Positions 2,642 through 49,425 of a DNA stretch of 64,000 nt are shown one piece after another. Both the position numbers and the translations under genes were made by a program. Within the stretch, counting starts at the first letter, position 1. Every line of letters begins with the position of its first letter. Below the pieces are notes generated by a model. It did not search any database. It was not told the DNA's origin and worked only from the letters and a program-made list of their open reading frames with translations. Origin of the DNA: an uncultured virus (IMG/VR IMGVR_UViG_3300032331_003338) (lineage: Duplodnaviria > Heunggongvirae > Uroviricota > Caudoviricetes); IMG/VR virus record IMGVR_UViG_3300032331_003338; one strand, written 5' to 3'.

Positions 2642-3337
2642 ATGGCAAAGGGCTCGGTCACATTCAATATCAAGGCCGCCGAGAGTAGCCTTAGGGCCGT
2701 CCGTAAGACCCTCCAGGAGTCAGTTGACCATCTCAACCCAACATTCCAGGCAGTGGCCGTAGAAATCGTGCAAAACGCCGTCTACGGCGGTCCTAACAGC
2801 CTTGCCGGCATGGCGTCGGAGCTTGCACCCATAGATACCGGGGCGCTGCAGGCTGGCCTTGCCTCCCCAGACTCTAGCGAGGAGTTTGATAAAGGCCGAT
2901 CATCTCAGAGCGTCTTTTCGGTCTCACCAATGGGCAAAGGTGGAGTTCAGTATGTTTCTGTGACCTACGGCACTGACCCGAAGAGGGATGACGGCACCGG
3001 ATATGCTCAATACGTAAAAGAGGATTTCCTATCTGCCCCAGCGGCAAAGTTCCGAACGAATATGGCCAGGCTTGGTACTGACATATCGCAGGCCATTGCA
3101 GCAGTCATTGCAGCCAACGTTCGCGTGGCAGCATCGACCTCCGGAACATACTCAGCTGCGAAAACTCGACTTAGCCCAACAAGCGTATTGAGATTGCTCA
3201 AGCAGTTCGGATCAAGTCCAATAGAGACAACAAGCGGAAGAGGGTATGGGTACCGCAGACTTGCATCAATGTCGCGGTCCCAATACCTCAAGATCATGCG
3301 CCAGCGGCGCTATCTTGCCGGCAAACGATCTAGCTAA
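2642..3337 (+). CDS. HK97 gp10-like neck/tail completion protein with Arg-rich C-terminal extension
   Basis: APIDTGALQ and YAQYV motifs; synteny. Confidence 0.7.
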   Translation: MAKGSVTFNIKAAESSLRAVRKTLQESVDHLNPTFQAVAVEIVQNAVYGGPNSLAGMASELAPIDTGALQAGLASPDSSEEFDKGRSSQSVFSVSPMGKGGVQYVSVTYGTDPKRDDGTGYAQYVKEDFLSAPAAKFRTNMARLGTDISQAIAAVIAANVRVAASTSGTYSAAKTRLSPTSVLRLLKQFGSSPIETTSGRGYGYRRLASMSRSQYLKIMRQRRYLAGKRSS

Positions 3338-4598
3338 GCCTAATCAGGTACTCAGCCGTAACGCCTTCTTTATGCTGGAAAAGCAGCCATTGGCAAGGCT
3401 CGCCAGCTGATGCAAGTTGCTCCTGAGCGTAGGTGTTCGAACTTTCGGTCGACCCGCCGCTCCAGTGAGTAATCCCGTTTAAGTACATCCTTGTTGGCGT
3501 ATGGAAGTGTCCAGCGGCGCTATAGTCAAATCGCGCTACCGTCATGTTCCAACCCTGAAGCTTTTTGCCAAACCCATACCATGGGAATCCAGCAAAGCCC
3601 CCACCAACTTGGTCACCGTGGAATAGGAACCACGTCTTGCCCTTTACTTCGTCTGCCGCGAACCAGGCACGCTCGCCCTCAGCAAGAGTTTCAACCCATT
3701 CGACGTTCTCCTGGCCCTTAAGCAGCATTGATGCAATGCGATACATCATTGCGTCTGCATTGCTCTCTGGGTGGAATGTTCCCTTTCGACCAAGGCGGCC
3801 ATGGTTGCCAATGACGCCAACAACTTTGATCTTTTCAAAATCGCTAGAAAGTTTTCTAACCAGGCCGGCAAGGATTTCCCCGCCGTGGAAAATCTGGTTA
3901 TAAAGCGAAGCATCAACTAGGTGCGCCTGCCCAGGGAAAATGTCTTCTCCCTCAATGAGGTCACCAAGAAGGTAAATTCTTAGCTCACGCACTGGGTGCG
4001 CCTTGCGCTGGATATCAACGAGCTTCTGGACCTTATCGGCAAGCTGCTTGATTCGGTCAGCGCAAACCTCTGAGTTATAGGTTGGCGTAATCTTTCCAAG
4101 CTGCCAATCTGAGAGCAGCAAAATCGCTGTCTCATCATCGCCCTTGCGGCCGTCATGCTTTGGCGCCTTTACCTGCTCAATATTAATCGCCGCCGCGGCC
4201 TCTCGTGCTGCCTGGTAAACAGCCTCAATCAGCTCTTGCTTTTCACGATCTTTGTCATCAAGCTTTCGAAGGGCCTTGCGATGCGCTGCCTTGAGGCGCT
4301 CGATTTCAGAGGTCGCCTCGTATGCTGCATTTTCTCGCTCAGCAATTGAGCTAATAATGTCCGGCGTCATGCCAGAATTAATCTTATCTCGGAGTGATCC
4401 CGGTACCGCACTTGGCTTCCCGCCGTTGTTGATTCTCTTGTCAACAAACGATGCCTTGCCGCGAAGCAAATTGTTGCGCATGATTCTCCAGGAATCCCTG
4501 CTGCGGTCTGGGTGCGAAGCAGAGAATGCTTCGTACGTCATGTTTATTGCATCCTGTTTTTCCTGCGCGGTCCATGACCGCACGGAGAACTCTGGCAT
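3330..4598 (-). CDS. Calcineurin-like metallophosphoesterase with N-terminal helical/coiled-coil region
   Basis: All five motifs are present: SDWQLG, GDLIEG, GNHGR, FHGD, GHFH. Confidence 0.85.
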   Translation of the reverse strand: MPEFSVRSWTAQEKQDAINMTYEAFSASHPDRSRDSWRIMRNNLLRGKASFVDKRINNGGKPSAVPGSLRDKINSGMTPDIISSIAERENAAYEATSEIERLKAAHRKALRKLDDKDREKQELIEAVYQAAREAAAAINIEQVKAPKHDGRKGDDETAILLLSDWQLGKITPTYNSEVCADRIKQLADKVQKLVDIQRKAHPVRELRIYLLGDLIEGEDIFPGQAHLVDASLYNQIFHGGEILAGLVRKLSSDFEKIKVVGVIGNHGRLGRKGTFHPESNADAMMYRIASMLLKGQENVEWVETLAEGERAWFAADEVKGKTWFLFHGDQVGGGFAGFPWYGFGKKLQGWNMTVARFDYSAAGHFHTPTRMYLNGITHWSGGSTESSNTYAQEQLASAGEPCQWLLFQHKEGVTAEYLIRLS

Positions 4599-5346: not shown

Positions 5347-6009
5347 ATGCTTACACTTGGATCTGGTGTAGTCAAGGTGGCGTTCTGGAAGTCCGGAGCG
5401 GTCATCGGACAGACCTCAAACTATTTTGCTAGCACTTCAGGCTACGGCAACACGGGCCAGCTCGTGACCGTTGGTGAAGTCGGCGGCGATGTCGAGTTCG
5501 ACATTAACTTCCAGGAGCGAGAGTTCTACGGCCAGTCAAACTTCCCAATCGCTAAGGCGTTCTTCGGCGGCAAGGCCGACATTCGCGCCCGCGGTGTGGA
5601 AATCAACTGGGACAACGTAAAGAACCTGTTCCATGTATCGCTTGGTGAGGGCACCACGCTTGACTCAACGGCGTATGCCTATGCACACGACGACTTTACT
5701 GGCGGATCGTACTCCGTCAACTTCGACCCAGACGGCGGGCGACCAAACTCATCGATTGCGAATGTGACGGCCCTGATGGGTCTGCCACGTCCTCTGTACG
5801 TTAAGTTTGAGCACATCCGTTCAGACGATCCATCGAAGTCAGTGATAATCCATTTGCCAAAGGCGTACAGCATGCAGCTCATGATGCCGTTCACCCGTGA
5901 AGACATTGCCCGACAGGACATTGACTTCTCGGCTGTTGTGGACCGCGACTGCAAGGTCACGTCAGGCTCTTCGAGCGCGACCCCATCGGTCGTACTCATC
6001 GAGGCGTAA
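5347..6009 (+). CDS. Major tail tube protein, copy 1
   Basis: GDVEFDINFQEREFYGQSNFPIAKAFFGGK...PFTREDIA..DIDFSA; between terminator and chaperone genes. Confidence 0.8.
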   Translation: MLTLGSGVVKVAFWKSGAVIGQTSNYFASTSGYGNTGQLVTVGEVGGDVEFDINFQEREFYGQSNFPIAKAFFGGKADIRARGVEINWDNVKNLFHVSLGEGTTLDSTAYAYAHDDFTGGSYSVNFDPDGGRPNSSIANVTALMGLPRPLYVKFEHIRSDDPSKSVIIHLPKAYSMQLMMPFTREDIARQDIDFSAVVDRDCKVTSGSSSATPSVVLIEA

Positions 6010-6030: not shown

Positions 6031-6894
6031 ATGTTTACACTTGGTAGCGGTCGACTTCAGGTTGGTACCTGGATTTCCGGCGGTCTTTATACTCAGGTCA
6101 CCGGCGTATCTGTGACCCCCTCAACTGCCTCGGGTTCTCTCCCTGCCGGCACGTACTACGTACGTGTCGCAGGGAAGAATGCCGCTGGCACAGCCAGCCC
6201 TTCGGATACGTACATTACTGTACTTTCTGCAACTGGCAAGCTTACAATCAATTGGAGCGCGCTCACTGGAGCAAGCAGCGGTTATGACGTTTATGTTGGC
6301 ACTGTCATCAACTATGACTGGAAGCAGGGCTCTGTTGCCGCCGGCACCACGACCTTTGAGCTGACGGCTCTTGTGGACCCTGCAGGGGCAGACCTTGCGC
6401 AATATAAGGGCATGCAGGATATTGGTGAAATTGGTGGCGACGTTGAATTTGACATCAGCTACCAGGAACGTGAGTTCTTTGGCCAGTACAACTTCCCTAT
6501 TGCAAAGGCCCACTTCGGTGGCAAGTCTGGCATCCGAGTTCGGGGCCTTGAGCTTGACCCTATGCGATTCTCAAAGCTTTTTAGCACCACTGTGACGAAT
6601 AATGCAAGCACGTCGATTTACCCGGGCACGCTGACGTTCCGCGAAAGCCTAAACTTTGGCACCGCGGCGGTTAACGCGCTTGACCTCTCAATGCTCCGGA
6701 ATCGACCTGTTCGATGCGCCTTCTCGCACACGCGATCTGACGACCCTTCGAAGTCTGTCAATATCGTCGCGCACAAGGCATGCATTTACCAGCATAATAT
6801 TCCGTTTACACGTGAGGACATCATCAAGGTTGATCTTGAGTTCAACCTACAGTATGATTCCAGCACGGCGCAGATCGTGACAATCACGGCCTAA
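6031..6894 (+). CDS. Major tail tube protein, copy 2, with internal Ig/FnIII-like insertion
   Basis: Clear paralog of copy 1 (GDVEFDISYQEREFFGQYNFPIAKAHFGGK, RSDDPSKSV, PFTREDI), plus insertion GTYYVRV...LTINWSALTGASSGYDVYVG. Confidence 0.8.
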   Translation: MFTLGSGRLQVGTWISGGLYTQVTGVSVTPSTASGSLPAGTYYVRVAGKNAAGTASPSDTYITVLSATGKLTINWSALTGASSGYDVYVGTVINYDWKQGSVAAGTTTFELTALVDPAGADLAQYKGMQDIGEIGGDVEFDISYQEREFFGQYNFPIAKAHFGGKSGIRVRGLELDPMRFSKLFSTTVTNNASTSIYPGTLTFRESLNFGTAAVNALDLSMLRNRPVRCAFSHTRSDDPSKSVNIVAHKACIYQHNIPFTREDIIKVDLEFNLQYDSSTAQIVTITA

Positions 6895-6936: not shown

Positions 6937-7230
6937 ATGGCTAGCCTTAATGAAGTGCGCCCAACGCGGGTGCTCACCCTCAATGACCTCGCTGACATCG
7001 AGGATAAGTTCGGAGGTCTTGACAAGGTTGACCTTACGAAGTTCACTGTACTTCGCTACATTTTGTGGCTTGTCCTTAAGAAGGATGACGCCAAGCTTGA
7101 TGAGCGAACAGTTGGTGATCAGTTTTCACTAGACACAATGCGGGAAGAGATCGATAAGGTACTTCGCTCCAGCGGCTTGATCGGCGCGGCCGACGAAGAA
7201 GGCGCTGAGGGAAAAGTAGCGGGGGCGTAA
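6937..7230 (+). CDS. Tail assembly chaperone (gpG analogue)
   Basis: 97-aa acidic protein between tube and TMP genes, ending ...EGK at a slippery site. Confidence 0.8.
   Translation: MASLNEVRPTRVLTLNDLADIEDKFGGLDKVDLTKFTVLRYILWLVLKKDDAKLDERTVGDQFSLDTMREEIDKVLRSSGLIGAADEEGAEGKVAGA
7209..7215 (+). other. Programmed -1 ribosomal frameshift site G GGA AAA
   Basis: Canonical X XXY YYZ in the correct frame; the -1 frame stays open into ORF 7260-7493. Confidence 0.85.
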
Positions 7231-7493
7231 GCTGGGGAGAGATTGACTGGGGGTCAATCATGGCATCGTACGCAGATGCTTTTGGTTACACCCCAACGGA
7301 GTTTATGCAACTAACGCTCCCACAGCTGAACGCTTACGCAAAGTACGTTGAGAAGCGAGACGATCAAATGAAGAGCGAATCGAAATCAACCCCCGCAAAA
7401 AATAAGGCAAAGTTTGCTGATGGCAAGTCAGGGATGAAAACAATTCAATCCCTTGACCACCTGGCACAAGTATTTGGAAAGCCAGGAGCATAA
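7209..7493 (+). CDS. Frameshift extension of the tail chaperone (gpT analogue)
   Basis: GKSSGGVSWGEIDWGSIMASYADAFGYTPTEFMQLTLPQL, matching the G.TP.EF..LT..Q pattern. Confidence 0.8.
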   Translation, partial: GKSSGGVSWGEIDWGSIMASYADAFGYTPTEFMQLTLPQLNAYAKYVEKRDDQMKSESKSTPAKNKAKFADGKSGMKTIQSLDHLAQVFGKPGA

Positions 7494-7508: not shown

Positions 7509-10500
7509 GTGGCGGAAGAGAATGTAGCAAGAGTTGGCATAGCTCTTGACTCCGCCGCGTTCCAAGACGGTGTATCCCGTGCCCTTCGTGACATCGATCG
7601 TCTCCTTAGCGGCCTAAAGACGCTACAGAACGCCAACCGGCAAATCTCCCTTGCCGCTGGCGGAGGCATGTTTGGTTCCGGATCTAAGTCCCCCGTTTCC
7701 AACTTTGCTAGAGACATAAACCGAAATGCGATACCGGCCCTGCGCGACATGGAACGCAATGCGATCCGTGTTGGCGGGGCCGTTCGCCGCTCCATGGCCG
7801 AAATTGGGCGACTATCTTCAGCTGCAGAGCAGGCACAGATTCGGCAAGAACGGGCAGCCATCACAGCTCAGCGAAGGGCCATGAATACATCTTCTCGTCG
7901 CGGAAGGTCCGCTAGGGACGAGGGGCTGTTTGGAACAGTGTCGTCAACTCCATCGTTTGAAGACCCACGTAGCAATTCAGGGAAAATTGCTGCACGTTAT
8001 GTTCTTCGTAGCCTTGAAGAACTCATTACCTCCGAGTCTGAGAACTACCCAAAGATTATGCAACCGCGCCCACGCGGCGGCGGCGGACGAACAGCTAGCC
8101 GTGGATCGCAAGAGACGGTCCAAAGCGTTGCGACAAAGTTTGCTCCAGGCAAGATCTTTAATACATCTACAAACCTAGAGGAAGGTCTTCCGGTTACAAT
8201 CATTGGCCCAGGCGGAGAGAAGTTTGTTCTTTCTGGAAACGGCCGCGTCATGGGCTTGCGACAGCTTTCCAAGGCACCACAAGGTCGAGTTCCAATCGTT
8301 TCTGCCGTTGAGGGATTCGTTACCGGCAACCCATCCCTGTTTGGTGGATCTACTGGCGTTGAGGAAACATTAAAGGCAGTTGCAAAAATTGCAAAGGCGA
8401 AGCAAACCCCAATCCTCACGAGGGAGCTCGTAAGCACCATGACTCAGCTCGGTGAGCGAGAGTCAGGAAAGCTTGGACTTGGCCTGAACACCAGGACCGC
8501 AATGTCTGAATCGGAAATGGCGATGGCCGTCTCCAAGCTTCTTCAGCGTCCTCCTACTGGCCTTGCAAAGGGAACCCCGGGTAAGATCCTTTCCGGTGGT
8601 GGGCAGGCCGTGCAGGAGTTTATTGGCCAGGTACTTGAGGTCCTACCACCACAAGTAGTTCGTTCTAGGTATCAGACTAGCTCGGGCGAGTCCAATAAAC
8701 AATTCCAGCAGCTCCTTGAAGGCGTTGCCATGTCTTCTGCGTACGGAAACAATCCAGCTACAGAGGCAATGATTACCAAGCTCCTTGAGGGTGGAAAGAC
8801 CGGCCTTCCCCCAGCAATACAGGGCGCTCTTCGACGAAACCTTGGCCCACAGCTCACCCTTCGCGGCAGGATTGCCTCTGGCGCGATCCCGGCTGAAATG
8901 GACCCGATTTACAATAACCTCCCGCAGGCCATTGAGCTGCTGGCAAGTGCTGGAAAGTCTTACGGACCAAAGTTTACTTCTGAGCAGATTGGAACACAGC
9001 AGGGGATGGAGCCCGCATCTCCGCAGGCGCTAAAGCTGGCGCAGGCGATGCGCAAGGCTGGATCTGCTGGTCTCCCGGCATTCTTTGAGGCAATTGCCCA
9101 GTACGGCAAGCGCGCCGTATCGGCCAGTGCTCCGACTCTTGGACTTGACCCCTCGTCATTCACTGCCGACCCAGAAGCCGCGTTACGCATTGCATCCTCG
9201 GCAGCAACTCGACTTGCATCCCATAAGGGGCCAAAGACAGAGGAGGTACTGTCGTCCATTGTGGAAGCGGCTATTAAAGAGTTTGCAACTCCAGAAGTCC
9301 TACAGCCCGCAGCAAAGAAGGCTGCGCGTGGTAGCGCTGCTAAAAAGGTGCAAAAGGCAGTAGAAGAGAAGGTTGAGCAGGTTGCTGAAGTTGTCGCCGA
9401 GGCAGTCGTTGACCCAAAGGCTACGCAAATGCGTCGACCGGAGTCTGAACGATTCTTTAAGGTTAATCCTCGGGCCATAGGAACTGCACAGGGTTCCGGA
9501 CGGGCTCGCGCAGGTGGATACGTTCCATATGCGGAGGCGTCAGAGGCCCAGCGAGGAAAGTACAACATGACGCTTCTCGGCGGATATGCCGAACTAGAGA
9601 AGCAGTACGCGGAAGCACAAGCAGAAGCAGAATACATGAAGGAAAACTTTGCGAGCAGACCAGGAGCTGCACCCCACGCTTCGGTTCAAAGGGCAGAAGC
9701 GCTTAGGACAAAGCTTACTGAGCTCAGGGGCGTGATGATTGAGCGCGGACTTGCCCAACCAACTATGGCAGAGCAAATTGCAGAGATATTCACTGGGCCA
9801 GAATCTTCTTCAGCTGGCTTAACACCAACCCGAACCTCTGGCGGGGGAAGCGGTGGCGGGGGCGGCGGTCGTCGACGAACAACTTCTGGCAGTGGTGGCG
9901 GGGGCGGCGGTGAGGAGCCAAAGGTTCCGAAGTGGATTGAGAATTTCCAGAATGCCGTTACGGCCGCAGGGTTTGATCCACAAAGTCTCCAGTACCTAAA
10001 CTCATCATTTAAGTTTGGCAATACTGCTGCAGCCATAGAACCTGGTTTGCATGGCCAGTCACGAGCCGCCCTAGGCGCCTTGCAGCAATATGCTGCCGTG
10101 CGCCAGCTGAGTATGGTTCAAATGTCACGAGGACTTCTCGGCAAGGGCGGGGCAAACGGATTCTGGCAGCCGGGGGCAACGGGTGAAGAGGGTGGAATTG
10201 CTCTTGGTGGCCTTGGGTCCAGGACTGCTGCGCCACTGCTACGAACATTTATTCATGAAATAGCTCATGGAACATTCAACGCCCTTATGTCTGGTGGATA
10301 TAAGCCCCAGGGCAAGGTGGAAATGTTTGGGCCAAGGGGCGAGGCTCTTGGGCCAACAAGCGCGCGATCCCTTCTTTCCCCGTATGGCGAGTCAACTGCT
10401 TCTGGACACGTAGACCCTGCATTCTATCGATCACAAGCAATGATCAGTAAAGCTGGCGGAGCACTATTGCCGCAGCTTGCGTTCCACAGGATGGTCGAAG

Positions 10501-13500
10501 AGATCATGCCGCAAGGGCACAACACCCAAGGCATTGGCATGGGCAAGTTCTCCCAGCTTCTCACGCCGCACCTCAAGGAATTTGCCTCACCTGAGCAGGC
10601 GCAAGGCGCAGAGGAGTTTGTTAAGTTCTCAGCCCGAATGATGGAGGCAGCAAGCAACTTTACACAAGGGTCGATTGGCAGAGGTGGAGCCTTAAGCATC
10701 ATGTCGGAAGGAATTCAACAGCTTGGGGCTTCCAGTAAGGCATTCCCCTCAACCTTCTTCCTTGAGGCAACATCCGTAGTCGGCAACGCCCTCAAGGGAC
10801 TTGAGGCTGGTGACCCAGCAAACCTAACGAAAATGTCTAACGCCCTCATGAACGCGGCAGCACTTTCCGCAGGTCCTGGTGAGTTCCGACCAGGAATCGC
10901 AGTGGCGTCCAAAGCAGCAGAAGAAGTAGCCAGCTATTTGAGCAACGCAAGCATTGAAGAAAAGGCCGCGATAGCACTTGGCGCAAATCCAAAACTTCTT
11001 GGAGATACATCCTTTAACCCGGGAAATCAAAATCACATTAAGGCTGTTAACGAGGCCATAGCCCAAATAGCTGCAACTGCTTCTGAGACAGCTCGAGGCG
11101 CTTCGGTTGCGCGATTTGCCAATGGCCAAAGAATTGAAACTCCATACGCGGCAACCCAAGGCCTGCTTGGGCCATACGCTCCTGGGTCGCTTATGGCGCA
11201 GACATCACCACTACAGTTCCCTGGCGGATCATTCCAGCAGCGCATGCAATGGTATGCAAGCCAGACACCTGGACAAAGGGCAGTTGAAGGCCCAATCCCT
11301 GGTGCCTATGCAAGAGCTACAGAATCGCGGTTTCTTGGCATTAGTCCTTCTTATCAAAAATCTTACATCCAGAGCAGAAATCGACTAGAGCTTGAGGCTG
11401 GACAGAAATCAAGTGCTCAGCAGCAATTTGTTGAATCTGCCAATGCCTCCGCGCGATTCTCTTCTGTTCAAAGCAAGCTAAACCTTGTCGTACAGGACGG
11501 AAGCATTCAGTTTGGCCATCTTTCACGTGCCCTAACGTCTACTGGCGATGGATTTACTGTATCTACCATAAACGCATTGAAGTTTGCTGCCGCAATTGCC
11601 GTTGGGCAGCAGATTACCGGATCTATCGTTGGAGCGTTTGAGCATCTTAAGGGCGGAATCATTGGATTCAACGCCATGCTTGAGGCCGCCAGCGTAGGGT
11701 TTAACACCCTATTCAAGAACGCCGGCAGATCGATCAAAGAAGCAGAAGCGGAAACAACTAAGACTATTGCGACACTCCGTGACTTTGCCAACGTTACCAA
11801 CTTTAGGTTTGGAGACCTTGAAACTGCCGCCCTAAGGATGCAGGCGTTCGGATTTGAAGTTGACACTGCCAAGGCGGCCCTCAAGGGTCAAATGCCCGTC
11901 CTTTATGAGGTAAAAAATGTTATCGCAGAAAACGCAACTGGAACTAAACAATTTGCTGGGGCACTGGTAAACATCGGCGATGCGGTTGCCGCGCTCGGAG
12001 GAGAAGACGACAAGCTGAGAAGGATTACGTACGCCCTTGGACAGATGAACTCTGCTGGGCGCGTATATCAGAACGACATGATGCAGCTGGCCAACGCCGG
12101 TATTGCCGGATACGACATCCTCGCTAAGGCGTTGCTCCAAGAAATTGAGGCTAGCCCCACCCTGAAGAAGGCCAATGCTGCCATTTATAACAAGCTGATG
12201 AACCCAGCCACCGCGGTCGAAGAGGTCCGCAGGTTGGCAAAGACGGGAAGATTGTTTGGCCCAGGAGCGGTTCAGGCAATCCTTGGCGGCCTTGAAGAGC
12301 GCTACGGCGGGGGAATGAAGGCATTCTCCAGGACCTTTGTTGGTGCATTGACAACCGTAGCAGATACGTCACAGTCCCTTGTTGCCACATCATTCAATCC
12401 GCTATTCTCCGTTGTCAGGGATCTCACTATTCAGCTGGCCGACTTCCTGCAGACAGCCGAGGCAACAACTGCCGCAACAGGGTTTGCAAAAACTATATCT
12501 GGAATTGCTGAAGCTATCCGTTCCGGTTTGCCGTCCGCAATTTCAATGGTCAATAAAGTTGTTTCTGCAGTTACTGACACGTTTGGAAAGCTTGCAGGAA
12601 GTGCCGCCAGCGGAACCAGCAGTCTTGGTGGATTTTTCCAGAATGCCATTAAGGGGCTTTCAACGATAGGCGACGTGTTGCAGAACGACGTCATTAGAAA
12701 CTTTGGCGCAACACTCGTCACTGCAAAGTTGGTCCTTGGCTTTATATCCTCCAACCCGCTGCTTGCAACTATTACGGCCTCTACAGCAGCCCTTGGGTTC
12801 TTGGCAACAGCAGTTCAGACAAATCAATTTGGTCTGGGGACGGCATTTGATAAGATTTCTGGTCCACTTCAGTCTTCTCTTAGCAACATTGGCAATAATC
12901 TACTTCCAAGCATCTCCGGATCTCTTACCTCTGCCGCCACTGTTATTGGAACTGCAATTGCCTCACTTCTTCAGGCATTTGCGCCATTAATTCAGATAAT
13001 CCTTGAAATTGTAAATGTTGTGTCCGGAGCGATGAAGCCATTCTCATCGATTCTAGGAATAGCATTGGCACTTTTTGTAGGAAAGCAAATACTTATCGAC
13101 GGAGTTGCCTCGGCAATGGCACGATTTGCAATGTTCACTGATAAGGCAGCATCATCTATCGACAAGATGAAAATGCAATGGTTTGCCGCCAAGGAGCTGC
13201 AGGCATTTGAACGATTTGGCCAACAGACATTTACCGCACAAATGGTTCCGCCACAGTACAACAAGGCCGGTGAGCTTACACGTCAAGGAGAGGTAATTTC
13301 TGGCCCGTTTGGCGGTCCGGGACAAGGACTGTCAAGCCCGCTACTTTATAAGATTGTAAATGCGCAGCTTGCAGCAGAGGCTGCCAAGTCTGGATTTAAG
13401 TACACCAATCAGAACGAGGGGTTAATTGGTGCGCAAAAGATTTCAGCGGAAAGCATGCCAATAGCAGGTGACCAGGCGATTACGGCACTTGCTTGGCTTA

Positions 13501-16500
13501 AGGGCCTAAAAAAGAGTGACGAGTCAGCATATAACCAAGTGATCCAGGGGGCCACCCCCTCTGAAAGACTGCAGCTAGAAGAGGCCATGAATGCTGGCAT
13601 TCGGAATGTAGTTGGCACATTGACTGCTTTCAAGAACTCAGTTATGGCCATTGAGGGGAACTTTAATCGACTTAAGTTTGTTGCCGCAGCGCTTGCTGAA
13701 AAGCTTGGCGGTATTAGCAATCTGGCTACCGGAATGGGTGTTCTTGTCTCAGTGATTGGCTCTCTTACCGGCAGCGAAAGCCTGCAGCAACTTGGGGCCA
13801 CCCTTACCACCCTAGGGATTGCAGGATCTGCTCTTACCGGCGTCTTCAACGGGTTGAAGCTTGCGTTTGGCATGTCGTCCCTTGCCGCCGCAATTACTAT
13901 GGTGATTACAGCACTTGGGGTGTGGGCGCTCAATCTGGCTGGAACATATCCGGATAAGAAGAAAAAGCTTGACGAAGTAGAGGGCATCTTCAGGGATTAC
14001 GCGACCAATAAGGGGCTTGATTTTAACACCCCGTATAACCAGCTGGAAGACCCAGCTCTTAAGTGGTACAGGGACAACATAAAGCCAGACATGGGCCTTC
14101 TTATTACGGAAATTACACCCGAGCTTCAAGCATTCATTGATCGCATCAGGGAAATAAATAATCAAGCCGCGAGTGATCGGGCTGCCATGAATCCCCGCTA
14201 TCGACGACAGAGGAACGAGTCGCAGATTGAGCAGTATGCAATTAGGGGGTATACACCAGAGCAGATCGCTTCATTCATGGGTCTTGACCTTACGTATGTA
14301 AAAAACTTCTTTAATAAGCTCGTTCAAGACGGTGGTGAGGCCGGTCAGAACATTACAAAGATCCTCACGGCGCAACTTGATGCTAGCGGTGAGGCCCTAA
14401 AGAAGGCACAAGACATTCTAGAAAAAGCTACTGCTGCCTTTGAGCGCCCACTCAACCGCCTTATGTCCCGAGTCCAGACCCTTATCTCGGAACTATTCGC
14501 CGACGAGAAGAAGAAGCTGGAGGAGGCAAAGAACGCCGCCCTTGCAAATATAGAAGTTCTTTATAACGGGGAAACGATCCGACTTGGCGTCCTTCAGGAG
14601 CAGTACGACGTTTTGTCTGCCCAGAAGAAAGAAATGGAGGAGATGCAGAGGCTTGAGGATCTGCGGACTAAGGCGTCTGAGGCAGCGCTTGGCATGTTTG
14701 ATGCTGGAACAGACCCCCTTGAACGAGCTCGGGCAGCACGAGATGCTGCGCGGCAACTGTTCTCAGAAGGTGAGCAGATGCGCCTTGACTCAATGGCAAG
14801 CACTATTGAGTCGGCGAAGAAGAGCGTCCCGTATACCGCCACCTCAGAGGACTACGACCAGCGAGTTAAGGCACTTGAGGTAGACCAGCAGGAGCGGCAG
14901 CGAGTACTGACCGAAACAATTGACGACCTGATGCGCAAGGTAAAAAATGGAAAGCTAACTGCAGCGGAAGCAAAGAAGATGCTGTACGACGCATTCTCGC
15001 AGACAGGACTTGACCTTTCGGTTGCAGCGGCTCAAGGCTATGACTTTATGGACAGCTTCTCTTCCGGGTTTATGGGCGCTCTTGAAAAGAACATTGATCG
15101 AACGTTTAAGAACTTGCCAAAGTTTATTACCTCTGCCCTGCGCGTGCTCAAAGAGGATGCGGCATACAAGAAGGCGCAAGATGAGCTAGCTAACATTCTT
15201 AACCCGACTGATGACAGCGCAAGAGTTTCTGGGTCAAGGGTCATTGCGGCAAGGGACGCCAGGTTGGGCGAGGCGAAGAGAATACTCTCCGCTCTTCAGC
15301 TTGCTGAAAACATGCCTGGCCAAACGCAAGCACAAAAAGACAAGCTTGTTCAGCAAATGTCGCAGCTTGCAATATACATTTCTAAACTTGAAAAGACCAA
15401 CATTTCCGCTGATCAAACATACCCACAGACCGACCTCACCCTTATCATGGAAAACTTTACTGCCAATACGTCTGGAATCCTCAAGATGCTTTATGCGCTT
15501 TTTGGGTTCCAGCAGACACAGAGCTGGTGGCAGAGCGGCGTTCCACTTGCGAACCGACCAGGAGATCTCACCCCAGAAAACTACAGGGCATCTGGTGGCG
15601 CTGTCGGAGCGGGAACTTACATGGTCGGCGAGCGTGGACCAGAGATGCTTCAGATGTTCCCAAATGGCGGAGGGTATGTCGTTCCAAACCACAAGCTTCC
15701 TTCCGGCATGCGTTCATCCGCTGCTGCCCTTGGTGGCGGCATCATGGGCCGAGCATGGGGCGGTGGCGTAGGGCCAGTAAACCCAGAAGATCCATGGATC
15801 AAGAGATATCCAATTTCTTCTCCAATGGAGCAGCGAGACGAGCGCCTGTTTGGGTGGTCGGGGAGAACTGGTCCGCGCGATGGAATGAAGTATGTTATGG
15901 ACTGGGGCGATCTTGTCATAGACGAAGACGCCTACGAAGACCTTGCGAAAAAGGCAGAGTCCCAGGGACGAACCGTAAAAGATTTTATTGAGCAACTTTC
16001 TGTTCAGGTACGAAAATCAGTGTTGCTTGCACCGCAGGGGATGTTTGACACAAGAACCGCTAGAACTAGACCACAAGTTCATATTACATCTGGTCAAGTT
16101 CACGAAAACGCTGCGGCACTCAATGGCTCAACTCTTCGAAATTTGATTTATCTATTCACTAAAACACAGGCATCTGACGGAACTGTATTTACAAATAGCC
16201 CCGCTGACCTTCTTGGAACAGTTCCTCACGAGTTTGGCCATTTGATTCACCAGCGGCAAAACCTCAACAAGACTGTCCTTAAAAAGCCTGGGATTTTAAT
16301 TGAAGCGCTCAAGCGATTCAACATATTTGACATCCCCTTTGGGGCGACAAGTAGCTGGAAAAATCTTCAGCGAGAGGATATTCTTGCCGGTCCTGCTAAG
16401 GGAATGCCTGGAAACCGATCAATATTGGATTCTATTAAGGCGATAGGGTCTGGAAAGGGCAAGTCCCAAACCTACTTTAATCCTGGGCCAATGAGCCACT

Positions 16501-18308
16501 ATGTTAAAAACCTTGGAGAAACATACGCAAATCTTTATGACGATTATGTACTTTCTGGCGGTGGAGTAGGAAAACTTGAGGGCGGTGTGGTGCCATCAAA
16601 TTACAACGAGTATCTGACCCGTCTAGGAAAATCTCAGGGGTGGACTTCTTTTGCCGGGCGCTCCTCTGGTCCGCAGATGGGCAGATTGTCAAAAACACCA
16701 TTTAAGAGTCCCGGATATGGTTTGCGCCCAGGAAATATTCTATATAACCCTGGAGCCCAGGCAGGAGTAGGATCTATTATAGACATGGTGCAAATGGCCA
16801 TGACTGGAACGCTTAGTGCCGCTGGCGCAGGGGCGTCCATCGGGCTTAACGCCCTAAGCATGATACCTAAATTTGGCGGGCCCCTAGCTGCACTAGCTGG
16901 CCTCGCTTTGACTCACGCAACTGGTGGGAATACGATGCGCGCGCTATTCTCAACTATTGGCTCTATTGGAGGCGGACTGCTGGGCGGTTTCGCGGGATCT
17001 TTCCTCGCCCCTGGAGTTGGAACGGTTGCCCTTGGGTATGGGGGGTCAATGGCTGGCGGCGCACTTGGTGGATCACTCTATGACCTCCTCTTTGGCGGCC
17101 CTGGTGGCTCAACGGTGCAGGGTTCCTTCCGCAAGAGCGCATTTGACATTCCTGGCAAGGCATGGGGCGGGGCAGTAGGCCCCTCCGGCCCTGAAGGGGC
17201 TAACTTTACAAACTTTGGCGACAAGGGCAGGACTACCGGGAAAATGCCAGCTGCATTCCTTGATCGGTTCATGAAGTATGGGATGCAAGGCCTATACAAC
17301 ACTCCGTGGGAAAAATATATTGGTGGCAGCTACATGCCGGTCTACGGTAATGCCGTAAATGCTTGGTGGGACCGCCTCACGGTAGCCTCTTCAGTTCCAT
17401 TTAGCTCACTTCCTAAGTACCAGCAACTGAACGAGATTATGTCCGGAGCATATCTTCCTCCAGAGTTTTACACCGGAAACAAGGAAAACCTTTCATATGC
17501 AGAGCTGATGGCGTCTCGTGGGGCCAAGTTCCCCGGCGTGGTACAGGGGTGGATGACAGCGTTTGGTGAAAAGCCAGCAGTCACCTATTGGGACCGAGGG
17601 GCTAGGGAGAACAACCCAGAGAACGCAGAATACCTTAAATACAATAGGCTTTACAACTGGTGGCGGAAAGTCGGACAGTTCGGAAACTATAAGGGGTATG
17701 ACGACCCGTACTACCGCTGGACCAAAACTATTGATCCAAAAACAGGCATCCTTACCGACACATGGCCAGAAACTGCCCTAAGCAGGAAATCTAAAAGGGT
17801 TCAGGATCTCATCCCTGAAATTTCTACATGGATGCTTACCCATGCGGGCCCAATGACGCAAGGCTGGTTTGGCAAGGAGTGGACCATGGACCAGTATAAG
17901 TCTTCCCCATGGGGTAAGAAAATGTTTGGGCCATGGAAGGACATCATGTTTGGCGAGGGCGGGTTTGTAGGCGACATAGAGAAATACTCGCAGAGAGTAC
18001 AGCAGGGGTGGATGGGTGAGCGCTATGCGGCAGGGGGAAGCTATCGACAAAATCGAGCATTCCTTGTTGGCGAAAATGGCCCAGAGATCATGGTTCCGGG
18101 TGGGCTAGGAGGATCGATCATCCCTAACCACAAGCTGCGCGGACCAGGAAACATCGGGTCAATGGCCAGCGGCCAGAGCGTCAACGCCTCTGTCATTATC
18201 AACAATCCAACCGTGTCAAACAGCGCAGATATTGATAAACTAGCCGCAAAGGTAAGCGAGGCTCAAACACGAGCCCTGCGTGCAGCTGGATATGTAAGGC
18301 CGTCATAA
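7509..18308 (+). CDS. Tape measure protein, 3599 aa, with accessory domains
   Basis: Follows the chaperones. TMP core at ~11650-12400 (LRDFANVTNF...GDAVAALGG...YALGQMNSAGRV..NDMMQLANAGI), a hydrophobic repeat region, and C-terminal A.GG...VGE.GPE...PN motifs. Confidence 0.92.
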   Translation: MAEENVARVGIALDSAAFQDGVSRALRDIDRLLSGLKTLQNANRQISLAAGGGMFGSGSKSPVSNFARDINRNAIPALRDMERNAIRVGGAVRRSMAEIGRLSSAAEQAQIRQERAAITAQRRAMNTSSRRGRSARDEGLFGTVSSTPSFEDPRSNSGKIAARYVLRSLEELITSESENYPKIMQPRPRGGGGRTASRGSQETVQSVATKFAPGKIFNTSTNLEEGLPVTIIGPGGEKFVLSGNGRVMGLRQLSKAPQGRVPIVSAVEGFVTGNPSLFGGSTGVEETLKAVAKIAKAKQTPILTRELVSTMTQLGERESGKLGLGLNTRTAMSESEMAMAVSKLLQRPPTGLAKGTPGKILSGGGQAVQEFIGQVLEVLPPQVVRSRYQTSSGESNKQFQQLLEGVAMSSAYGNNPATEAMITKLLEGGKTGLPPAIQGALRRNLGPQLTLRGRIASGAIPAEMDPIYNNLPQAIELLASAGKSYGPKFTSEQIGTQQGMEPASPQALKLAQAMRKAGSAGLPAFFEAIAQYGKRAVSASAPTLGLDPSSFTADPEAALRIASSAATRLASHKGPKTEEVLSSIVEAAIKEFATPEVLQPAAKKAARGSAAKKVQKAVEEKVEQVAEVVAEAVVDPKATQMRRPESERFFKVNPRAIGTAQGSGRARAGGYVPYAEASEAQRGKYNMTLLGGYAELEKQYAEAQAEAEYMKENFASRPGAAPHASVQRAEALRTKLTELRGVMIERGLAQPTMAEQIAEIFTGPESSSAGLTPTRTSGGGSGGGGGGRRRTTSGSGGGGGGEEPKVPKWIENFQNAVTAAGFDPQSLQYLNSSFKFGNTAAAIEPGLHGQSRAALGALQQYAAVRQLSMVQMSRGLLGKGGANGFWQPGATGEEGGIALGGLGSRTAAPLLRTFIHEIAHGTFNALMSGGYKPQGKVEMFGPRGEALGPTSARSLLSPYGESTASGHVDPAFYRSQAMISKAGGALLPQLAFHRMVEEIMPQGHNTQGIGMGKFSQLLTPHLKEFASPEQAQGAEEFVKFSARMMEAASNFTQGSIGRGGALSIMSEGIQQLGASSKAFPSTFFLEATSVVGNALKGLEAGDPANLTKMSNALMNAAALSAGPGEFRPGIAVASKAAEEVASYLSNASIEEKAAIALGANPKLLGDTSFNPGNQNHIKAVNEAIAQIAATASETARGASVARFANGQRIETPYAATQGLLGPYAPGSLMAQTSPLQFPGGSFQQRMQWYASQTPGQRAVEGPIPGAYARATESRFLGISPSYQKSYIQSRNRLELEAGQKSSAQQQFVESANASARFSSVQSKLNLVVQDGSIQFGHLSRALTSTGDGFTVSTINALKFAAAIAVGQQITGSIVGAFEHLKGGIIGFNAMLEAASVGFNTLFKNAGRSIKEAEAETTKTIATLRDFANVTNFRFGDLETAALRMQAFGFEVDTAKAALKGQMPVLYEVKNVIAENATGTKQFAGALVNIGDAVAALGGEDDKLRRITYALGQMNSAGRVYQNDMMQLANAGIAGYDILAKALLQEIEASPTLKKANAAIYNKLMNPATAVEEVRRLAKTGRLFGPGAVQAILGGLEERYGGGMKAFSRTFVGALTTVADTSQSLVATSFNPLFSVVRDLTIQLADFLQTAEATTAATGFAKTISGIAEAIRSGLPSAISMVNKVVSAVTDTFGKLAGSAASGTSSLGGFFQNAIKGLSTIGDVLQNDVIRNFGATLVTAKLVLGFISSNPLLATITASTAALGFLATAVQTNQFGLGTAFDKISGPLQSSLSNIGNNLLPSISGSLTSAATVIGTAIASLLQAFAPLIQIILEIVNVVSGAMKPFSSILGIALALFVGKQILIDGVASAMARFAMFTDKAASSIDKMKMQWFAAKELQAFERFGQQTFTAQMVPPQYNKAGELTRQGEVISGPFGGPGQGLSSPLLYKIVNAQLAAEAAKSGFKYTNQNEGLIGAQKISAESMPIAGDQAITALAWLKGLKKSDESAYNQVIQGATPSERLQLEEAMNAGIRNVVGTLTAFKNSVMAIEGNFNRLKFVAAALAEKLGGISNLATGMGVLVSVIGSLTGSESLQQLGATLTTLGIAGSALTGVFNGLKLAFGMSSLAAAITMVITALGVWALNLAGTYPDKKKKLDEVEGIFRDYATNKGLDFNTPYNQLEDPALKWYRDNIKPDMGLLITEITPELQAFIDRIREINNQAASDRAAMNPRYRRQRNESQIEQYAIRGYTPEQIASFMGLDLTYVKNFFNKLVQDGGEAGQNITKILTAQLDASGEALKKAQDILEKATAAFERPLNRLMSRVQTLISELFADEKKKLEEAKNAALANIEVLYNGETIRLGVLQEQYDVLSAQKKEMEEMQRLEDLRTKASEAALGMFDAGTDPLERARAARDAARQLFSEGEQMRLDSMASTIESAKKSVPYTATSEDYDQRVKALEVDQQERQRVLTETIDDLMRKVKNGKLTAAEAKKMLYDAFSQTGLDLSVAAAQGYDFMDSFSSGFMGALEKNIDRTFKNLPKFITSALRVLKEDAAYKKAQDELANILNPTDDSARVSGSRVIAARDARLGEAKRILSALQLAENMPGQTQAQKDKLVQQMSQLAIYISKLEKTNISADQTYPQTDLTLIMENFTANTSGILKMLYALFGFQQTQSWWQSGVPLANRPGDLTPENYRASGGAVGAGTYMVGERGPEMLQMFPNGGGYVVPNHKLPSGMRSSAAALGGGIMGRAWGGGVGPVNPEDPWIKRYPISSPMEQRDERLFGWSGRTGPRDGMKYVMDWGDLVIDEDAYEDLAKKAESQGRTVKDFIEQLSVQVRKSVLLAPQGMFDTRTARTRPQVHITSGQVHENAAALNGSTLRNLIYLFTKTQASDGTVFTNSPADLLGTVPHEFGHLIHQRQNLNKTVLKKPGILIEALKRFNIFDIPFGATSSWKNLQREDILAGPAKGMPGNRSILDSIKAIGSGKGKSQTYFNPGPMSHYVKNLGETYANLYDDYVLSGGGVGKLEGGVVPSNYNEYLTRLGKSQGWTSFAGRSSGPQMGRLSKTPFKSPGYGLRPGNILYNPGAQAGVGSIIDMVQMAMTGTLSAAGAGASIGLNALSMIPKFGGPLAALAGLALTHATGGNTMRALFSTIGSIGGGLLGGFAGSFLAPGVGTVALGYGGSMAGGALGGSLYDLLFGGPGGSTVQGSFRKSAFDIPGKAWGGAVGPSGPEGANFTNFGDKGRTTGKMPAAFLDRFMKYGMQGLYNTPWEKYIGGSYMPVYGNAVNAWWDRLTVASSVPFSSLPKYQQLNEIMSGAYLPPEFYTGNKENLSYAELMASRGAKFPGVVQGWMTAFGEKPAVTYWDRGARENNPENAEYLKYNRLYNWWRKVGQFGNYKGYDDPYYRWTKTIDPKTGILTDTWPETALSRKSKRVQDLIPEISTWMLTHAGPMTQGWFGKEWTMDQYKSSPWGKKMFGPWKDIMFGEGGFVGDIEKYSQRVQQGWMGERYAAGGSYRQNRAFLVGENGPEIMVPGGLGGSIIPNHKLRGPGNIGSMASGQSVNASVIINNPTVSNSADIDKLAAKVSEAQTRALRAAGYVRPS

Positions 18309-28467: not shown

Positions 28468-29250
28468 CTATTCAATGGTCCATCCATCGTTGAGCATTTT
28501 GATGGACAAGTCGCCATCCCAAATCATTGGGAAGTGCGTGGAGTGCGCAGTCCTGGCATCAAGCTTGAGCCAAATTTTTCCGCCAAGCTCTCGCCAGTCT
28601 TTACAGAATGTCCAGTCTTCCCCAACAAAATACTGCTCCCTGTCTCTGGAGTACCTGAAGTATTCAAACACGTCTTCATCAGGTCCACCGTAGTGCTCCT
28701 TATACCTTCTGTCTGGGTGCCCCTTCTGAAACTCAAGGAATACTTTTCTATTAATAATCATAGCCCCGGTAGCGGTGCTGTCGGCTTGCGCAAACCCTAG
28801 TTCGCGTATTTCTTTTGGTGTCGATTCTTGGTCTTCCGACAGTTTAAATGCCCCCGGCGACATGCCTGCATGGAATGCCATTGCGCCGCTATCGGCATAT
28901 TTCACAATGTTCTGTACTGACTTATCTGTGGAAAATGTTCTCTTGCAATATGGTAGAGCCGTAAACTTTAACCCTGACTTCATGCAATCAATAACGTCCT
29001 GGGGCGACAGTCCAACGTCTGCGTCAAGAAGCAAGGCATGGGAGAATCCTGATTGCATAAAGTTGTGAATGCATCGATTTCTTGCAACTGGCAAGATCGA
29101 GTTTCCCGCCAGTGGGTACCACTGAACCGGTATGCCTTCTTTTCCAGCAAGATTAATGATTGAAACTACGGTTGTAACGTATTCCATACTAAATGAGCCG
29201 TGAATGCTCGGGGTAGTGATAAATAAAGATAGCTTATTTTGCTCTGCCAT
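28468..29250 (-). CDS. GT-A fold glycosyltransferase, paralog 1
   Basis: TP...G.S.L..ARN, LLLDAD (DxD), TG.M.I.R, GEDW.FC motifs. Confidence 0.8.
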   Translation of the reverse strand: MAEQNKLSLFITTPSIHGSFSMEYVTTVVSIINLAGKEGIPVQWYPLAGNSILPVARNRCIHNFMQSGFSHALLLDADVGLSPQDVIDCMKSGLKFTALPYCKRTFSTDKSVQNIVKYADSGAMAFHAGMSPGAFKLSEDQESTPKEIRELGFAQADSTATGAMIINRKVFLEFQKGHPDRRYKEHYGGPDEDVFEYFRYSRDREQYFVGEDWTFCKDWRELGGKIWLKLDARTAHSTHFPMIWDGDLSIKMLNDGWTIE

Positions 29251-40609: not shown

Positions 40610-41125
40610 ATGGCTAAACGTGGTCGCGTAGGGGCTGAACAGCTTGCCTCTCTCCGAGAGAAGATTAAGGGTCTGCATCTTCAGGGTGTTCCGACACTAG
40701 AAATTGCATCTGCCGTTGACCTCTCCCCAGAGACAGTTCGTAAGCATATCTACGCAATTAGAAAGCAATGGTCCGAAGAAGGGCCCGACTCAGCCGCCAG
40801 CAGGCTAGAGTTGATTCAGCGCGCCAATCTTATTGCCAAGATGGCTGCCGGCGGTGCCGCCAGGGCCAGGGGAACTAAGGATGAGGCAACGTTCCTCAAG
40901 CTTCAGCTAGAGGTTATCGATAGGATCGCTAAGCTTACGGGGTCGTATGCAAGCGAGCGACAGCCCGGCGACACAAATGTTGCAATACAAATAAATAATA
41001 CCGTTCACGAAATAGACCAGCTTGCACCGGAGGATCTAGCGGCGAGGCTGCAAATGTGGGCCTCTGAGATAGAGGGAAAGGCAGTACTCCTTGAGTCAAG
41101 CTCAGACGGTCAACCAGAGATATAG
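40610..41125 (+). CDS. terS: Terminase small subunit (HTH)
   Basis: EIASAVDLSPETVRKHI HTH and DRIAKLTG; overlaps terL. Confidence 0.7.
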   Translation: MAKRGRVGAEQLASLREKIKGLHLQGVPTLEIASAVDLSPETVRKHIYAIRKQWSEEGPDSAASRLELIQRANLIAKMAAGGAARARGTKDEATFLKLQLEVIDRIAKLTGSYASERQPGDTNVAIQINNTVHEIDQLAPEDLAARLQMWASEIEGKAVLLESSSDGQPEI

Positions 41126-42518
41126 GGACTGGCTCCGCGTTAAGGCCGCAACATCCGACGCTGCTTTCGCAGAGTATATAAGCGGACTTGTCTTCCCTAA
41201 GCACCTGAGAGAGATGGAAGCGTTTCTTGACGAGAATGACCGAGCGCTTGTGTTGATGCCTCGAGGTCACGCTAAGACCACCCAGCTCATACACAGGGCC
41301 GCTCGAGTTATTGGTGCAACTCACGGAAAAGTTCGCATTGGCATTTTGACTTCGGTAATGTCTGACGCCCTTGCTCGATCACGAGCGATAAAGACAATCA
41401 TTGAGTCCCCGCATTTTGCTGAGGTGTTTCCATGGGCGAGGGAGGGCGTTATCGGATCTAAGTGGACCGATGAGGTCTGGACGGTAAAGGGAGCGAACCT
41501 TGGCAAGGACTCCACGTGCTTTGCAGATGGTCTCGGCTCCATTAAGCCTGGAGCACGTCTTGACGTTCTATTCGCAGACGACCTTGTGGGCATGAAGGAA
41601 AACGCTACGGCCGTTCAGCGACAGAAGGCCAGCGAAACATACTGGCAGGTTGTGGACCCAATGCTTGTCCCTGGGGCAAAGCGCTGGTATATCGGCACTC
41701 GATGGCACGAAGATGACTTTTACGCCGAGCTCATGAGGAAAGAGGTTTCTTTCTATCAGCGAAGGGCAGTTGAAGGCGAAAATGTTCTTTGGCCAGAAAT
41801 GTACACCATGGCCGACATGGAGCAAAAAAAGATGGAGCTTGGAGGACCAATCTTCATGCTTCAGTTCCAAAACGACGTTACTTCGATGGGTGGAAACATT
41901 TTCCGCTACGAGTATTTCCAACGGGTTGATAGAGTTCCGGAGGGCGCCAGGAGAATCGGTGTCGACCTTGCGTCTTCCGCAAGCGAGCGCAGCGACTATA
42001 CCGCTGCGGTTGAGGTCCTGGAGGACGATCAACACAACCTATACATTATTGGCTGCTGGAAGGCGCGGCTACAAGAGGGCCATAAGGCCTGGCTTACTGG
42101 GATCGATAACAATAATGAAATGGTGCAAGACGCAGGGCCAAGAATGATGTGGCCGCAACGACTGCTTGGCCTAAAGGGCCTAGATACGGAGCTAGACTCT
42201 CCACGATTCTTTGAGTCGGTGAACATTGAGGCAGTTCAGCACCAGAGCACGTTTGTGCGTGAAATTCTTTCTACTACCAGGCTTCCGGCTCGACCTATTC
42301 GCCCCGACAGGGATAAGGTCACCAGGTCTAGGGCCCTTTCGGCAAGGTATGAGGCCGGGAAAGTGTTCCACGTTAACGGAGCCCCAGGCATTGAGGACCT
42401 AGAGTCTAATATGCTGGCGTTCCCAAACGGGACCCATGACGACCTGGTTGACGCTCTTGTGTATGCTGCCGACCTTGGTGGCGACGGGTTTTATTTCACC
42501 TCGGCAAAGAGGTACTAG
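41091..42518 (+). CDS. terL: Terminase large subunit
   Basis: Walker A PRGHAKTT, Walker B VLFADD, IGTRWHEDD, nuclease GVDLASS...DYTA and FPNG.HDDLVDA. Confidence 0.93.
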   Translation: MSQAQTVNQRYRDWLRVKAATSDAAFAEYISGLVFPKHLREMEAFLDENDRALVLMPRGHAKTTQLIHRAARVIGATHGKVRIGILTSVMSDALARSRAIKTIIESPHFAEVFPWAREGVIGSKWTDEVWTVKGANLGKDSTCFADGLGSIKPGARLDVLFADDLVGMKENATAVQRQKASETYWQVVDPMLVPGAKRWYIGTRWHEDDFYAELMRKEVSFYQRRAVEGENVLWPEMYTMADMEQKKMELGGPIFMLQFQNDVTSMGGNIFRYEYFQRVDRVPEGARRIGVDLASSASERSDYTAAVEVLEDDQHNLYIIGCWKARLQEGHKAWLTGIDNNNEMVQDAGPRMMWPQRLLGLKGLDTELDSPRFFESVNIEAVQHQSTFVREILSTTRLPARPIRPDRDKVTRSRALSARYEAGKVFHVNGAPGIEDLESNMLAFPNGTHDDLVDALVYAADLGGDGFYFTSAKRY

Positions 42519-44728: not shown

Positions 44729-45613
44729 CTAGGAAATCTTCTTCATGTGTTTTAGCGCCCGCGCAATACCTTCGTCTAGGTCAATCTTTGGCTTGTATAC
44801 CTTTGACATTTCAGTGGTATCTGCGACGCGCCAGTTGACGCCTTCGGGTTTATCTTTAAGCAATTGGTACTTTGGGAAATATCCAGAGTGCTTGGCCACC
44901 ATTTCCGCTAAGTCCATAAAGCTTGTAGCATGACCTGTTCCTATGTTTAGTGGACCATCATACTCCATCGATACCGCTGCTTCAACACAGCCAACAACGT
45001 CAGAGATATGAACGAAATCTCTCGTCTGCGTTCCGTCCCCCCATATAACAAACGGGTTGTCTCGGTCAAGGCCACGCTTAATAAACGAAGGAAATGGGTA
45101 CTCCAATGCCTGGTCTTCTCCGTAGCCGGAGAATGGACGGAATATGTGAACCTTAACACCCTCAGCTTTTGCAAATTGAGCAAGGTATTCTCCGGTGAGC
45201 TTTGACCACCCGTACGTCAAGTCTGGATTTCTGATGTTGTTAAGGTTGATGTCGGCCTCCTTGAGCTTCTGGTGCGCTTCTTTTCTTTGCAAATCGATTG
45301 GGTATGCTGCAGAAGAAGAGAAGTACACCACCCGCGGCTGCTTTGTCCTAATAACCCACTGCCACATCTCCGCATCGATTGAAAGGTCTACTGCAACAGA
45401 CAGCGGATTTCCCTCAATCTTTGCCCTTCCGCCAACGACGGCGGCAAGGTGTACCACGAGGTCAAACTTAGTGTGGTTGGCAAAAGAAAAGAACTTCCTT
45501 ACGTCCATTGCATCTACGATGTCTACCCCAAGAACTTTGTGACCCTGGTCCTCATAGAACTTTTGGAAGTGGCGACCAACAAAACCCCTGTTGCCAGTAA
45601 TTAAAATGTTCAT
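44729..45613 (-). CDS. NAD-dependent NDP-sugar epimerase/dehydratase (extended SDR)
   Basis: ITGNRGFVG, HLAA, SSSAAY, YGWSK, GDGTQTRDFVH. Confidence 0.92.
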   Translation of the reverse strand: MNILITGNRGFVGRHFQKFYEDQGHKVLGVDIVDAMDVRKFFSFANHTKFDLVVHLAAVVGGRAKIEGNPLSVAVDLSIDAEMWQWVIRTKQPRVVYFSSSAAYPIDLQRKEAHQKLKEADINLNNIRNPDLTYGWSKLTGEYLAQFAKAEGVKVHIFRPFSGYGEDQALEYPFPSFIKRGLDRDNPFVIWGDGTQTRDFVHISDVVGCVEAAVSMEYDGPLNIGTGHATSFMDLAEMVAKHSGYFPKYQLLKDKPEGVNWRVADTTEMSKVYKPKIDLDEGIARALKHMKKIS

Positions 45614-49220: not shown

Positions 49221-49425
49221 TTTCACCTCCGGGACGGACAGCATACACCATTTTTTTGCGTGCGCCGCCCCCGGTTTTGGGGGAAGGGGGGGGAACCTTT
49301 AAGGAGGGGGGGGATGGGGGGCTCAGGAATCTGGGGATCTGGGCCAATATCTTGTTATTAGTTACATAGGTGGGGGCTGGTCAAATCATTACAAAAGCGT
49401 GCTCGCCGTTGCATTGTGCTTCAGG

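Follow-up and report, generated by a model that had tools for sequence, protein, structure and literature searches.

Gene organization around the tape measure gene

The DNA analyzed here (hereafter the window) comprises the initial 64 kb of a contig of 86,834 bases. The 109-base terminal repeat of this contig suggests an apparently complete circular phage genome. The longest tail gene (7509–18308, plus strand) encodes a 3599-aa protein with candidate cargo domains. The gene lies directly 3' of a tail assembly chaperone pair (6937–7493, plus strand), which was recognized by its slippery site and a match to the tail protein family phrog_2115. Within the pair, an in-phase G GGA AAA −1 slippery heptamer at 7209–7215 joins ORFs 6937–7230 and 7260–7493. 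The same heptamer was found approximately 300 nt 5' of the start of the long tail gene in all seven related loci checked, and we take its presence in the gene 5' of a tape measure protein (TMP) to be the established tail-chaperone frameshift arrangement.

The product of ORF 7509–18308 was identified as a TMP by several sequence features, in agreement with the earlier note on this DNA. It matched PHROG TMP families (including phrog_9959) and, at aa 1478–1626 (11940–12386, plus strand) within the best-conserved tape-measure core, Pfam TMP_3 (E 7.7e-8, score 32.7, below the cut-off of 41). TMP_3 was above the cut-off in the relatives P0005 and L006, and several relatives carry the database name 'tape measure domain-containing protein'. 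Furthermore, four hydrophobic, putatively membrane-spanning segments (Kyte-Doolittle 19-mers >1.6) were located at aa 1751–2147 (12759–13949, plus strand), and large tail genes follow downstream of the ORF.

Other genes in the window were recorded alongside. An exonuclease gene (phrog_284; 3330–4598, minus strand) lies amid the head-tail/tail genes in opposite orientation. Two adjacent genes 5' of the chaperone (5347–6009 and 6031–6894, plus strand) have similar starts (MLTLGSG and MFTLGSG) and possibly encode paralogous tail tube proteins; a profile search with their products gave no informative match. The terminase large subunit gene (41091–42518, plus strand) is far from the head-tail module, amid minus-strand genes. 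Three phrog_1574 paralogues together with a nucleotide-sugar epimerase and a glycosyltransferase (28468–29250, 47399–48160, 48402–49244, and 44729–46266, minus strand) hint at glycosylation of DNA or the virion.

Identification of a DdrB module in the TMP

The earlier note had pointed to a DdrB/ParB motif at 8140–8420. The motif it quoted, TNLEEGLPVTIIGPGGEKFVLSGNGRVMGL (aa 221–250; 8169–8258, plus strand), does lie inside that interval. The interval itself was too narrow: the whole module covers about aa 150–530 (~380 residues, ~nt 7956–9128). Its first part is a ParB/Srx-fold domain delimited by Pfam, hhalign, and a structural model (aa ~150–330; 7956–8498, plus strand), with QPRPR at aa 185–189 and SGNGR at aa 242–246. 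The second is an all-helical lobe delimited by alignment, HMM, and model (aa ~331–540; 8499–9128, plus strand). This lobe had escaped the earlier note, as had the HExxH motifs and the HicA-like insert of relatives described below.

Shuffling the protein 2000 times yielded the SGNGR pentamer in 10 cases, so that the motif on its own is modest evidence. Profile methods gave clearer results. Pfam PF18763 (ddrB-ParB) matched aa 158–255, starting at nt 7980, with E 8.7e-9 and 36 bits against a cut-off of 27.6. Among the 14 relatives scanned, it was also above the cut-off in P0002, P0003, P0010, and P0011, whereas eight had matches below the cut-off and P0005 and P0006 had none (10 of 14). An HMM built from nine non-TMP DdrB modules matched aa 157–484 with 45.6 bits, and neither any of 50 shuffles nor the reversed protein was reported. 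By hhalign, the profile of TMP copies aligned with the non-TMP DdrB protein P0008 (96%, 304 columns), which itself aligned with P1 DdrB (E 6e-27), and with P1 DdrB directly (94.8%, 109 columns). These alignments indicate that the module consists of the ParB domain plus the helical lobe, the latter being homologous to the stretch after ParB in non-TMP DdrB proteins (304 aligned columns).

A profile search of 1.84 billion representatives returned 131 matches, namely seven members of the TMP clade, 123 canonical DdrB modules, and one cadherin. The last (P0014) was excluded as a false match on account of its cadherin repeats. An Atlas search with the relative P0007 gave top clusters at 0.93–0.95, all of them ddrB-ParB. 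No match was found for the window's domain among 50,697 GenBank phages (tblastn) or for the module in a PDB sequence search, and the genome contains no second DdrB copy.

The AlphaFold model of the module (71 sequences) has four strands, with a pLDDT of 92.1 and a pTM of 0.89. Its top eight structural matches among 48,161 solved chains (VIA) were all ParB/Srx proteins (Z 4.4–7.6). They included pNOB8 ParB (Z 7.6, rmsd 6.5, 215 aligned), KorB with a CTP analogue (Z 7.2, rmsd 2.7, 96 aligned), sulfiredoxin (Z 6.0, rmsd 3.3, 88 aligned), PadC, and SerK. Every Z-score was below 8 and is modest, and the weight rests on the consistent family of the matches. BFVD matches were DdrB- and ParB-like as well; the best, a UniProt record 95% identical, is auto-named 'DdrB-like domain-containing protein', which indicates that automated annotation already labels the domain. 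According to its predicted fold and its motif, the module is a member of the ParB/Srx superfamily. The DdrB-like ParB domain that the earlier note had read from the motif is thus borne out by the PF18763 match, the P1 DdrB profile match, and the structural matches.

Residues kept and lost in the TMP copies

All related TMPs found (12 viral and 5 metagenome loci, with some redundancy; 12 protein records) carry the module at the same place, immediately behind the conserved TMP N-terminus. G-x-x-R is kept in all 12 related TMP proteins and the exact SGNGR in six. Neither outcome that the earlier note had named as refuting it, a missing ParB/Srx fold match or an unconserved SGNGR, was encountered. 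Residues were counted in an alignment of 15 TMP rows and 56 canonical DdrB rows. S175, P181, Q185, P186, R187, R189, G226, G243, R246, P301, and N327 are present in all 15 TMP rows, with the Q/R/R/G/N/R set retained; Arg246 is the conserved Box II-type arginine. At least 85% of the canonical rows agree at 40 positions, 19 of which are kept in at least 12 of the 15 TMP rows and 21 of which are not. Identity among distant TMP members is 27–46%, and the module region is conserved better than the flanking linkers.

The losses are as consistent as the retentions. Tyr267 occurs in 56 of 56 canonical rows versus 0 of 15 TMP rows, and a second alignment gave 126 of 131 versus 0 of 10 for the family tyrosine. 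Glu241, Arg307, Asp341, and Arg402 are likewise found in none of the 15 TMP rows; the Glu, Arg, and Asp are conserved in most of the family. Iyer et al. (2017; main text, PMC5512222) ascribe to DdrB-like ParB domains a unique helix with a conserved tyrosine, possibly important for activity. From the alignment, we infer that Tyr267 is this tyrosine. The helix that would bear it is present in our model, and the tyrosine itself is absent from the TMP copies, so we class the TMP module as a derived variant of the DdrB-like family rather than a plain member. The same text describes an Asp or Asn at the end of strand 2 as a feature of these domains; in the likely corresponding column (aa 235, placement approximate), the window has Gly, against Asp in 41 of the 56 canonical rows. 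Given that the family tyrosine and the Glu/Arg/Asp trio are lost, catalysis is uncertain. Of the nucleotide or DNA binding or hydrolysis on entry suggested by the earlier note, hydrolysis is weakened, because all TMP copies lack the tyrosine and likewise the Glu, Arg, and Asp.

Origin, selection, and distribution of the module

Phylogenetic analyses placed the TMP copies in one clade on a long branch (FastTree support 1.0 with 141 rows; SH-aLRT 100 with a 40-row subset). This clade joins a family of giant non-TMP proteins of 1700–3750 aa (P0043, P0048, P0069, P0072, P0093, P0099, P0124, and P0031), with a support of 0.6 in FastTree and 94 in SH-aLRT. The two share the DdrB module only, and the module is the only profile match in the giant proteins scanned. 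The Glu/Arg/Asp trio is replaced by hydrophobic residues in all eight giant proteins, and the tyrosine is kept in seven of them. No viral loci were found for P0048 or for P0008. A single ancestral graft from the giant non-TMP lineage is likely from these trees, which may be affected by long-branch attraction.

For the two halves of the module, dN/dS was 0.09 and 0.12 (window versus L003), 0.13 and 0.15 (L010 versus L012), and 0.17 and 0.23 (L005 versus L006), these being the three pairs with usable dS; the window versus L004 was saturated at synonymous sites. The pair L010 and L013 gave 1.3 and 2.0 on few changes (5 synonymous versus 15 non-synonymous codons). Positive selection in this pair was rejected, as 15:5 is close to the neutral ratio. 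These sequence comparisons suggest that the TMP copies are mostly under purifying selection. L007 and L013 are identical over the insert preceding the module, yet 83 of 180 codons distinguish their ParB halves; the reverse holds for L010 and L013. The reciprocal pattern suggests that the module was exchanged as a block among close relatives, and could also arise from phage mosaicism in general.

Pfam detected no TMP in 55 representative ORFs that bear the module, taken from the best 80 of 579 viral loci. Nine ORFs were cut by locus ends, and this set overlaps with the canonical protein sample. Among the 123 canonical DdrB proteins, there was no TMP match in the 18 scanned by Pfam or the 12 scanned by PHROG, and a TMP-core HMM of the clade matched none of the sampled DdrB proteins outside it. 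Independent TMP fusions of DdrB-ParB were thus not found in the sample, with the proviso that TMPs often escape profiles. Many of the sampled DdrB-bearing ORFs carry domains of polyvalent proteins, such as LPD38, ART-PolyVal, InPase, PBECR, or helicases, and many match ddrB-ParB alone. Separately, in the podophage Piluca (L021:6444–9314), a DdrB module is fused to an epsilon15 gp16-like protein. A scan of genome contigs revealed no prophage.

Other motifs and inserts in the TMPs

Further candidate cargo was found in the same proteins. An HExxH motif (HEIAH, aa 916–920; 10254–10268, plus strand) occurs in every full-length relative and is invariant across the 10 aligned rows. Its region gave weak Pfam hints of DUF6782 and WLM, in one row each, and no match to PDB, Atlas, or the P1 DdrB C-terminus. 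At the level of the motif, it may be a putative metallopeptidase. A second HExxH motif (HEFGH, aa 2907–2911; 16227–16241, plus strand) lies in the variable C-terminal region; it is absent in P0004, P0005, P0009, and P0010, and a weak SprT-like match was seen in the relative P0013. A VGExGPE motif occurs twice in the window TMP (aa 2706 and 3520; 15624–18080) and also in P0002, P0003, P0011, and P0013. The two copies flank a variable region of ~800 aa holding the second HExxH. In shorter relatives the VGExGPE motif is single and most of this region is missing, which suggests that duplication created a second cargo slot.

Two TMP subgroups have a HicA-like insert of ~70 aa just before the DdrB module (L010:9716–9943, L007:3005–3232, L009:9716–9943, L012:9680–9907, and L006:9399–9626). 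The window's group lacks the insert, as do P0010, P0011, and P0013. All five inserts matched the small phage family phrog_2089 (best E 3e-12) and four matched phrog_353 ('toxin'). Pfam HicA matches were below the cut-off (E 0.018 and 0.083), GH is invariant in all five, and the PDB gave no match.

Relation to known systems

Compared with DdrB-like ParB domains in general (PF18763; prototype P1 DdrB), as described in the main text of PMC5512222, the window module shares the fold, QPRxR, GxxR, and the downstream helical lobe. It also shares a place in a virion gene module, the lack of a ParA motif, and an HExxH elsewhere in the polypeptide. It differs in its carrier, which is a TMP rather than the head-internal or podovirus ejection proteins described there, and in being without the conserved tyrosine, Glu241, Arg307, and Asp341. 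Within the wider ParB/Srx superfamily (KorB, PadC, sulfiredoxin, and SerK), the fold and the GxxR phosphate-binding motif are held in common. Unlike those systems, the genome has no ParA-type Walker motif (no KGGxGK[TS] in its six frames) and the protein has no HTH or dimerisation domain by Pfam. A role as a chromosome-partition ParB was rejected for want of a ParA-type motif and an HTH match. A survey of ParB-CTPases (10.1101/2025.10.10.680097) states, in its available text, that nucleotide specificity is not predictable from sequence; 'tape' and 'virion' do not occur there.

TMPs with additional domains are known. Those of mycobacteriophages (Rpf, motif 2, and the peptidoglycan hydrolase motif 3; available text of PMC1796659) resemble the present case in having an enzyme-like domain in the TMP that aids infection. 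For their motifs, an action on the cell wall has been shown or proposed, whereas the window cargo has a nucleotide-binding fold that would need the cytoplasm. The contractile injection system effectors Tme and Sle1 (PMC13277306) similarly involve a TMP scaffold bearing a modular payload, although they belong to bacterial nanomachines rather than phages, and ParB is unmentioned in the main text of that paper. A TMP–DdrB fusion or such tail delivery was not found described in the literature searched, which was mostly open-access. The word 'tape' is absent from the main text of PMC5512222, and its architecture supplements, outside this coverage, may bear on novelty.

Possible functions of the module

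Our preferred reading, to which we give slightly better than an even chance, is that the DdrB-derived module of the TMP would likely be ejected at infection, where it would bind nucleotide via its arginine pocket and probably protect the entering genome from host defences. After one graft from the giant non-TMP virion protein family onto the TMP, the module would be carried in the virion and ejected with the TMP, probably unfolded or parked at the head end. We infer both steps from the fact that a TMP exits the tail during infection and contacts the inner membrane (available text of PMC13277306; also the SNIPE study). The module, perhaps set free by the HExxH domain, might then refold on the host side and bind nucleotide at Arg246. 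Full canonical catalysis would not be expected, because the family tyrosine is lost. The outcome could be early counter-defence or a chaperoning or handling of the incoming DNA, by analogy with P1 DdrB, which belongs to the Dar set that is co-ejected with DNA and affects type I restriction (available text of PMC12810830). The other apparent conflict-type cargo in the same protein, namely the HicA-like insert in relatives and HExxH, would count for a cargo role. A folded domain of 380 aa is unlikely to fit the tail lumen, which counts against it.

We tentatively advance a bolder version, which we regard as a good deal more doubtful. In it, the TMP might be a polyvalent effector cassette whose units, namely a DdrB-ParB nucleotide switch, an exchangeable HicA-like RNase, and metallopeptidases, pass through the tail in unfolded form and reach the cytoplasm before the DNA.

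Alternatively, the module may be a non-catalytic structural cap at the head-proximal end of the TMP, which holds the DNA end or times TMP release while its arginine pocket binds phosphate. The loss of the family tyrosine and several polar residues, a constant place behind the conserved TMP N-terminus across all relatives, and a purifying selection on the module that resembles the rest of the TMP are all consistent with this. Nevertheless, block-wise exchange and a variable HicA-like neighbour fit cargo better, and typical TMPs generally function without such a domain. Moreover, the Glu/Arg/Asp losses are common to the non-TMP sister family and need not mark a loss of function. We regard a structural cap as unlikely.

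The TMP could also be a polyprotein whose N-terminal cargo is cut off in assembly, perhaps by its own HExxH domain, the freed module being head-packaged or acting at a late stage in the cell that makes the phage, like a separate DdrB of the P1 kind. Processing precedes packaging in the case of P1 DdrB (main text of PMC5512222), TMP processing is common (available text of PMC1796659), and the first HExxH motif is conserved in all full-length relatives. Also in line with processing, the full protein would correspond to a tail of ~540 nm by a rule of thumb of 0.15 nm per residue, and the TMPs of relatives are between 3216 and at least 3973 aa long. Against this, the HExxH region has no peptidase family or fold support, and with a cut beyond aa ~540 the conserved TMP N-terminus (aa 1–100) would be lost as well. 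We hold such processing to be rather improbable.

A decaying passenger that only lengthens the ruler would agree with the long branch, the sub-threshold Pfam matches in many relatives, and the near-neutral L010/L013 pair. It is largely refuted by pocket residues kept in 15 of 15 rows despite the 27–46% identity among distant members, by the dN/dS of 0.09–0.23 in three pairs, and by a module region that outconserves its flanking linkers, and we hold it very improbable. Finally, one might doubt that the ORF encodes a TMP, or suspect that contig assembly had joined a polyvalent protein to a TMP. This reading, to which only the window's TMP_3 score of 32.7 below the cut-off of 41 might lend weight, is refuted by the same continuous ORF in independent contigs, with TMP_3 above the cut-off in P0005 and L006, the slippery site in all seven loci, and the hydrophobic segments and large tail genes that follow, so that its chance is close to negligible.

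In the literature surveyed, TMP-borne enzymes have a known or proposed action on the cell wall, and polyvalent conflict domains occur in head, portal, and ejection proteins. The biochemical activity of DdrB is undescribed in that literature, and the TMP module provides a compact, well-folding version of the DdrB module together with a natural tyrosine-loss variant. If the TMP were indeed an effector cassette, siphoviruses would gain a tail-borne counter-defence route, parallel to the head-packaged Dar proteins and the ejection proteins of podoviruses. If the module is delivered, the ruler protein of the tail would be able to send effectors ahead of the genome.
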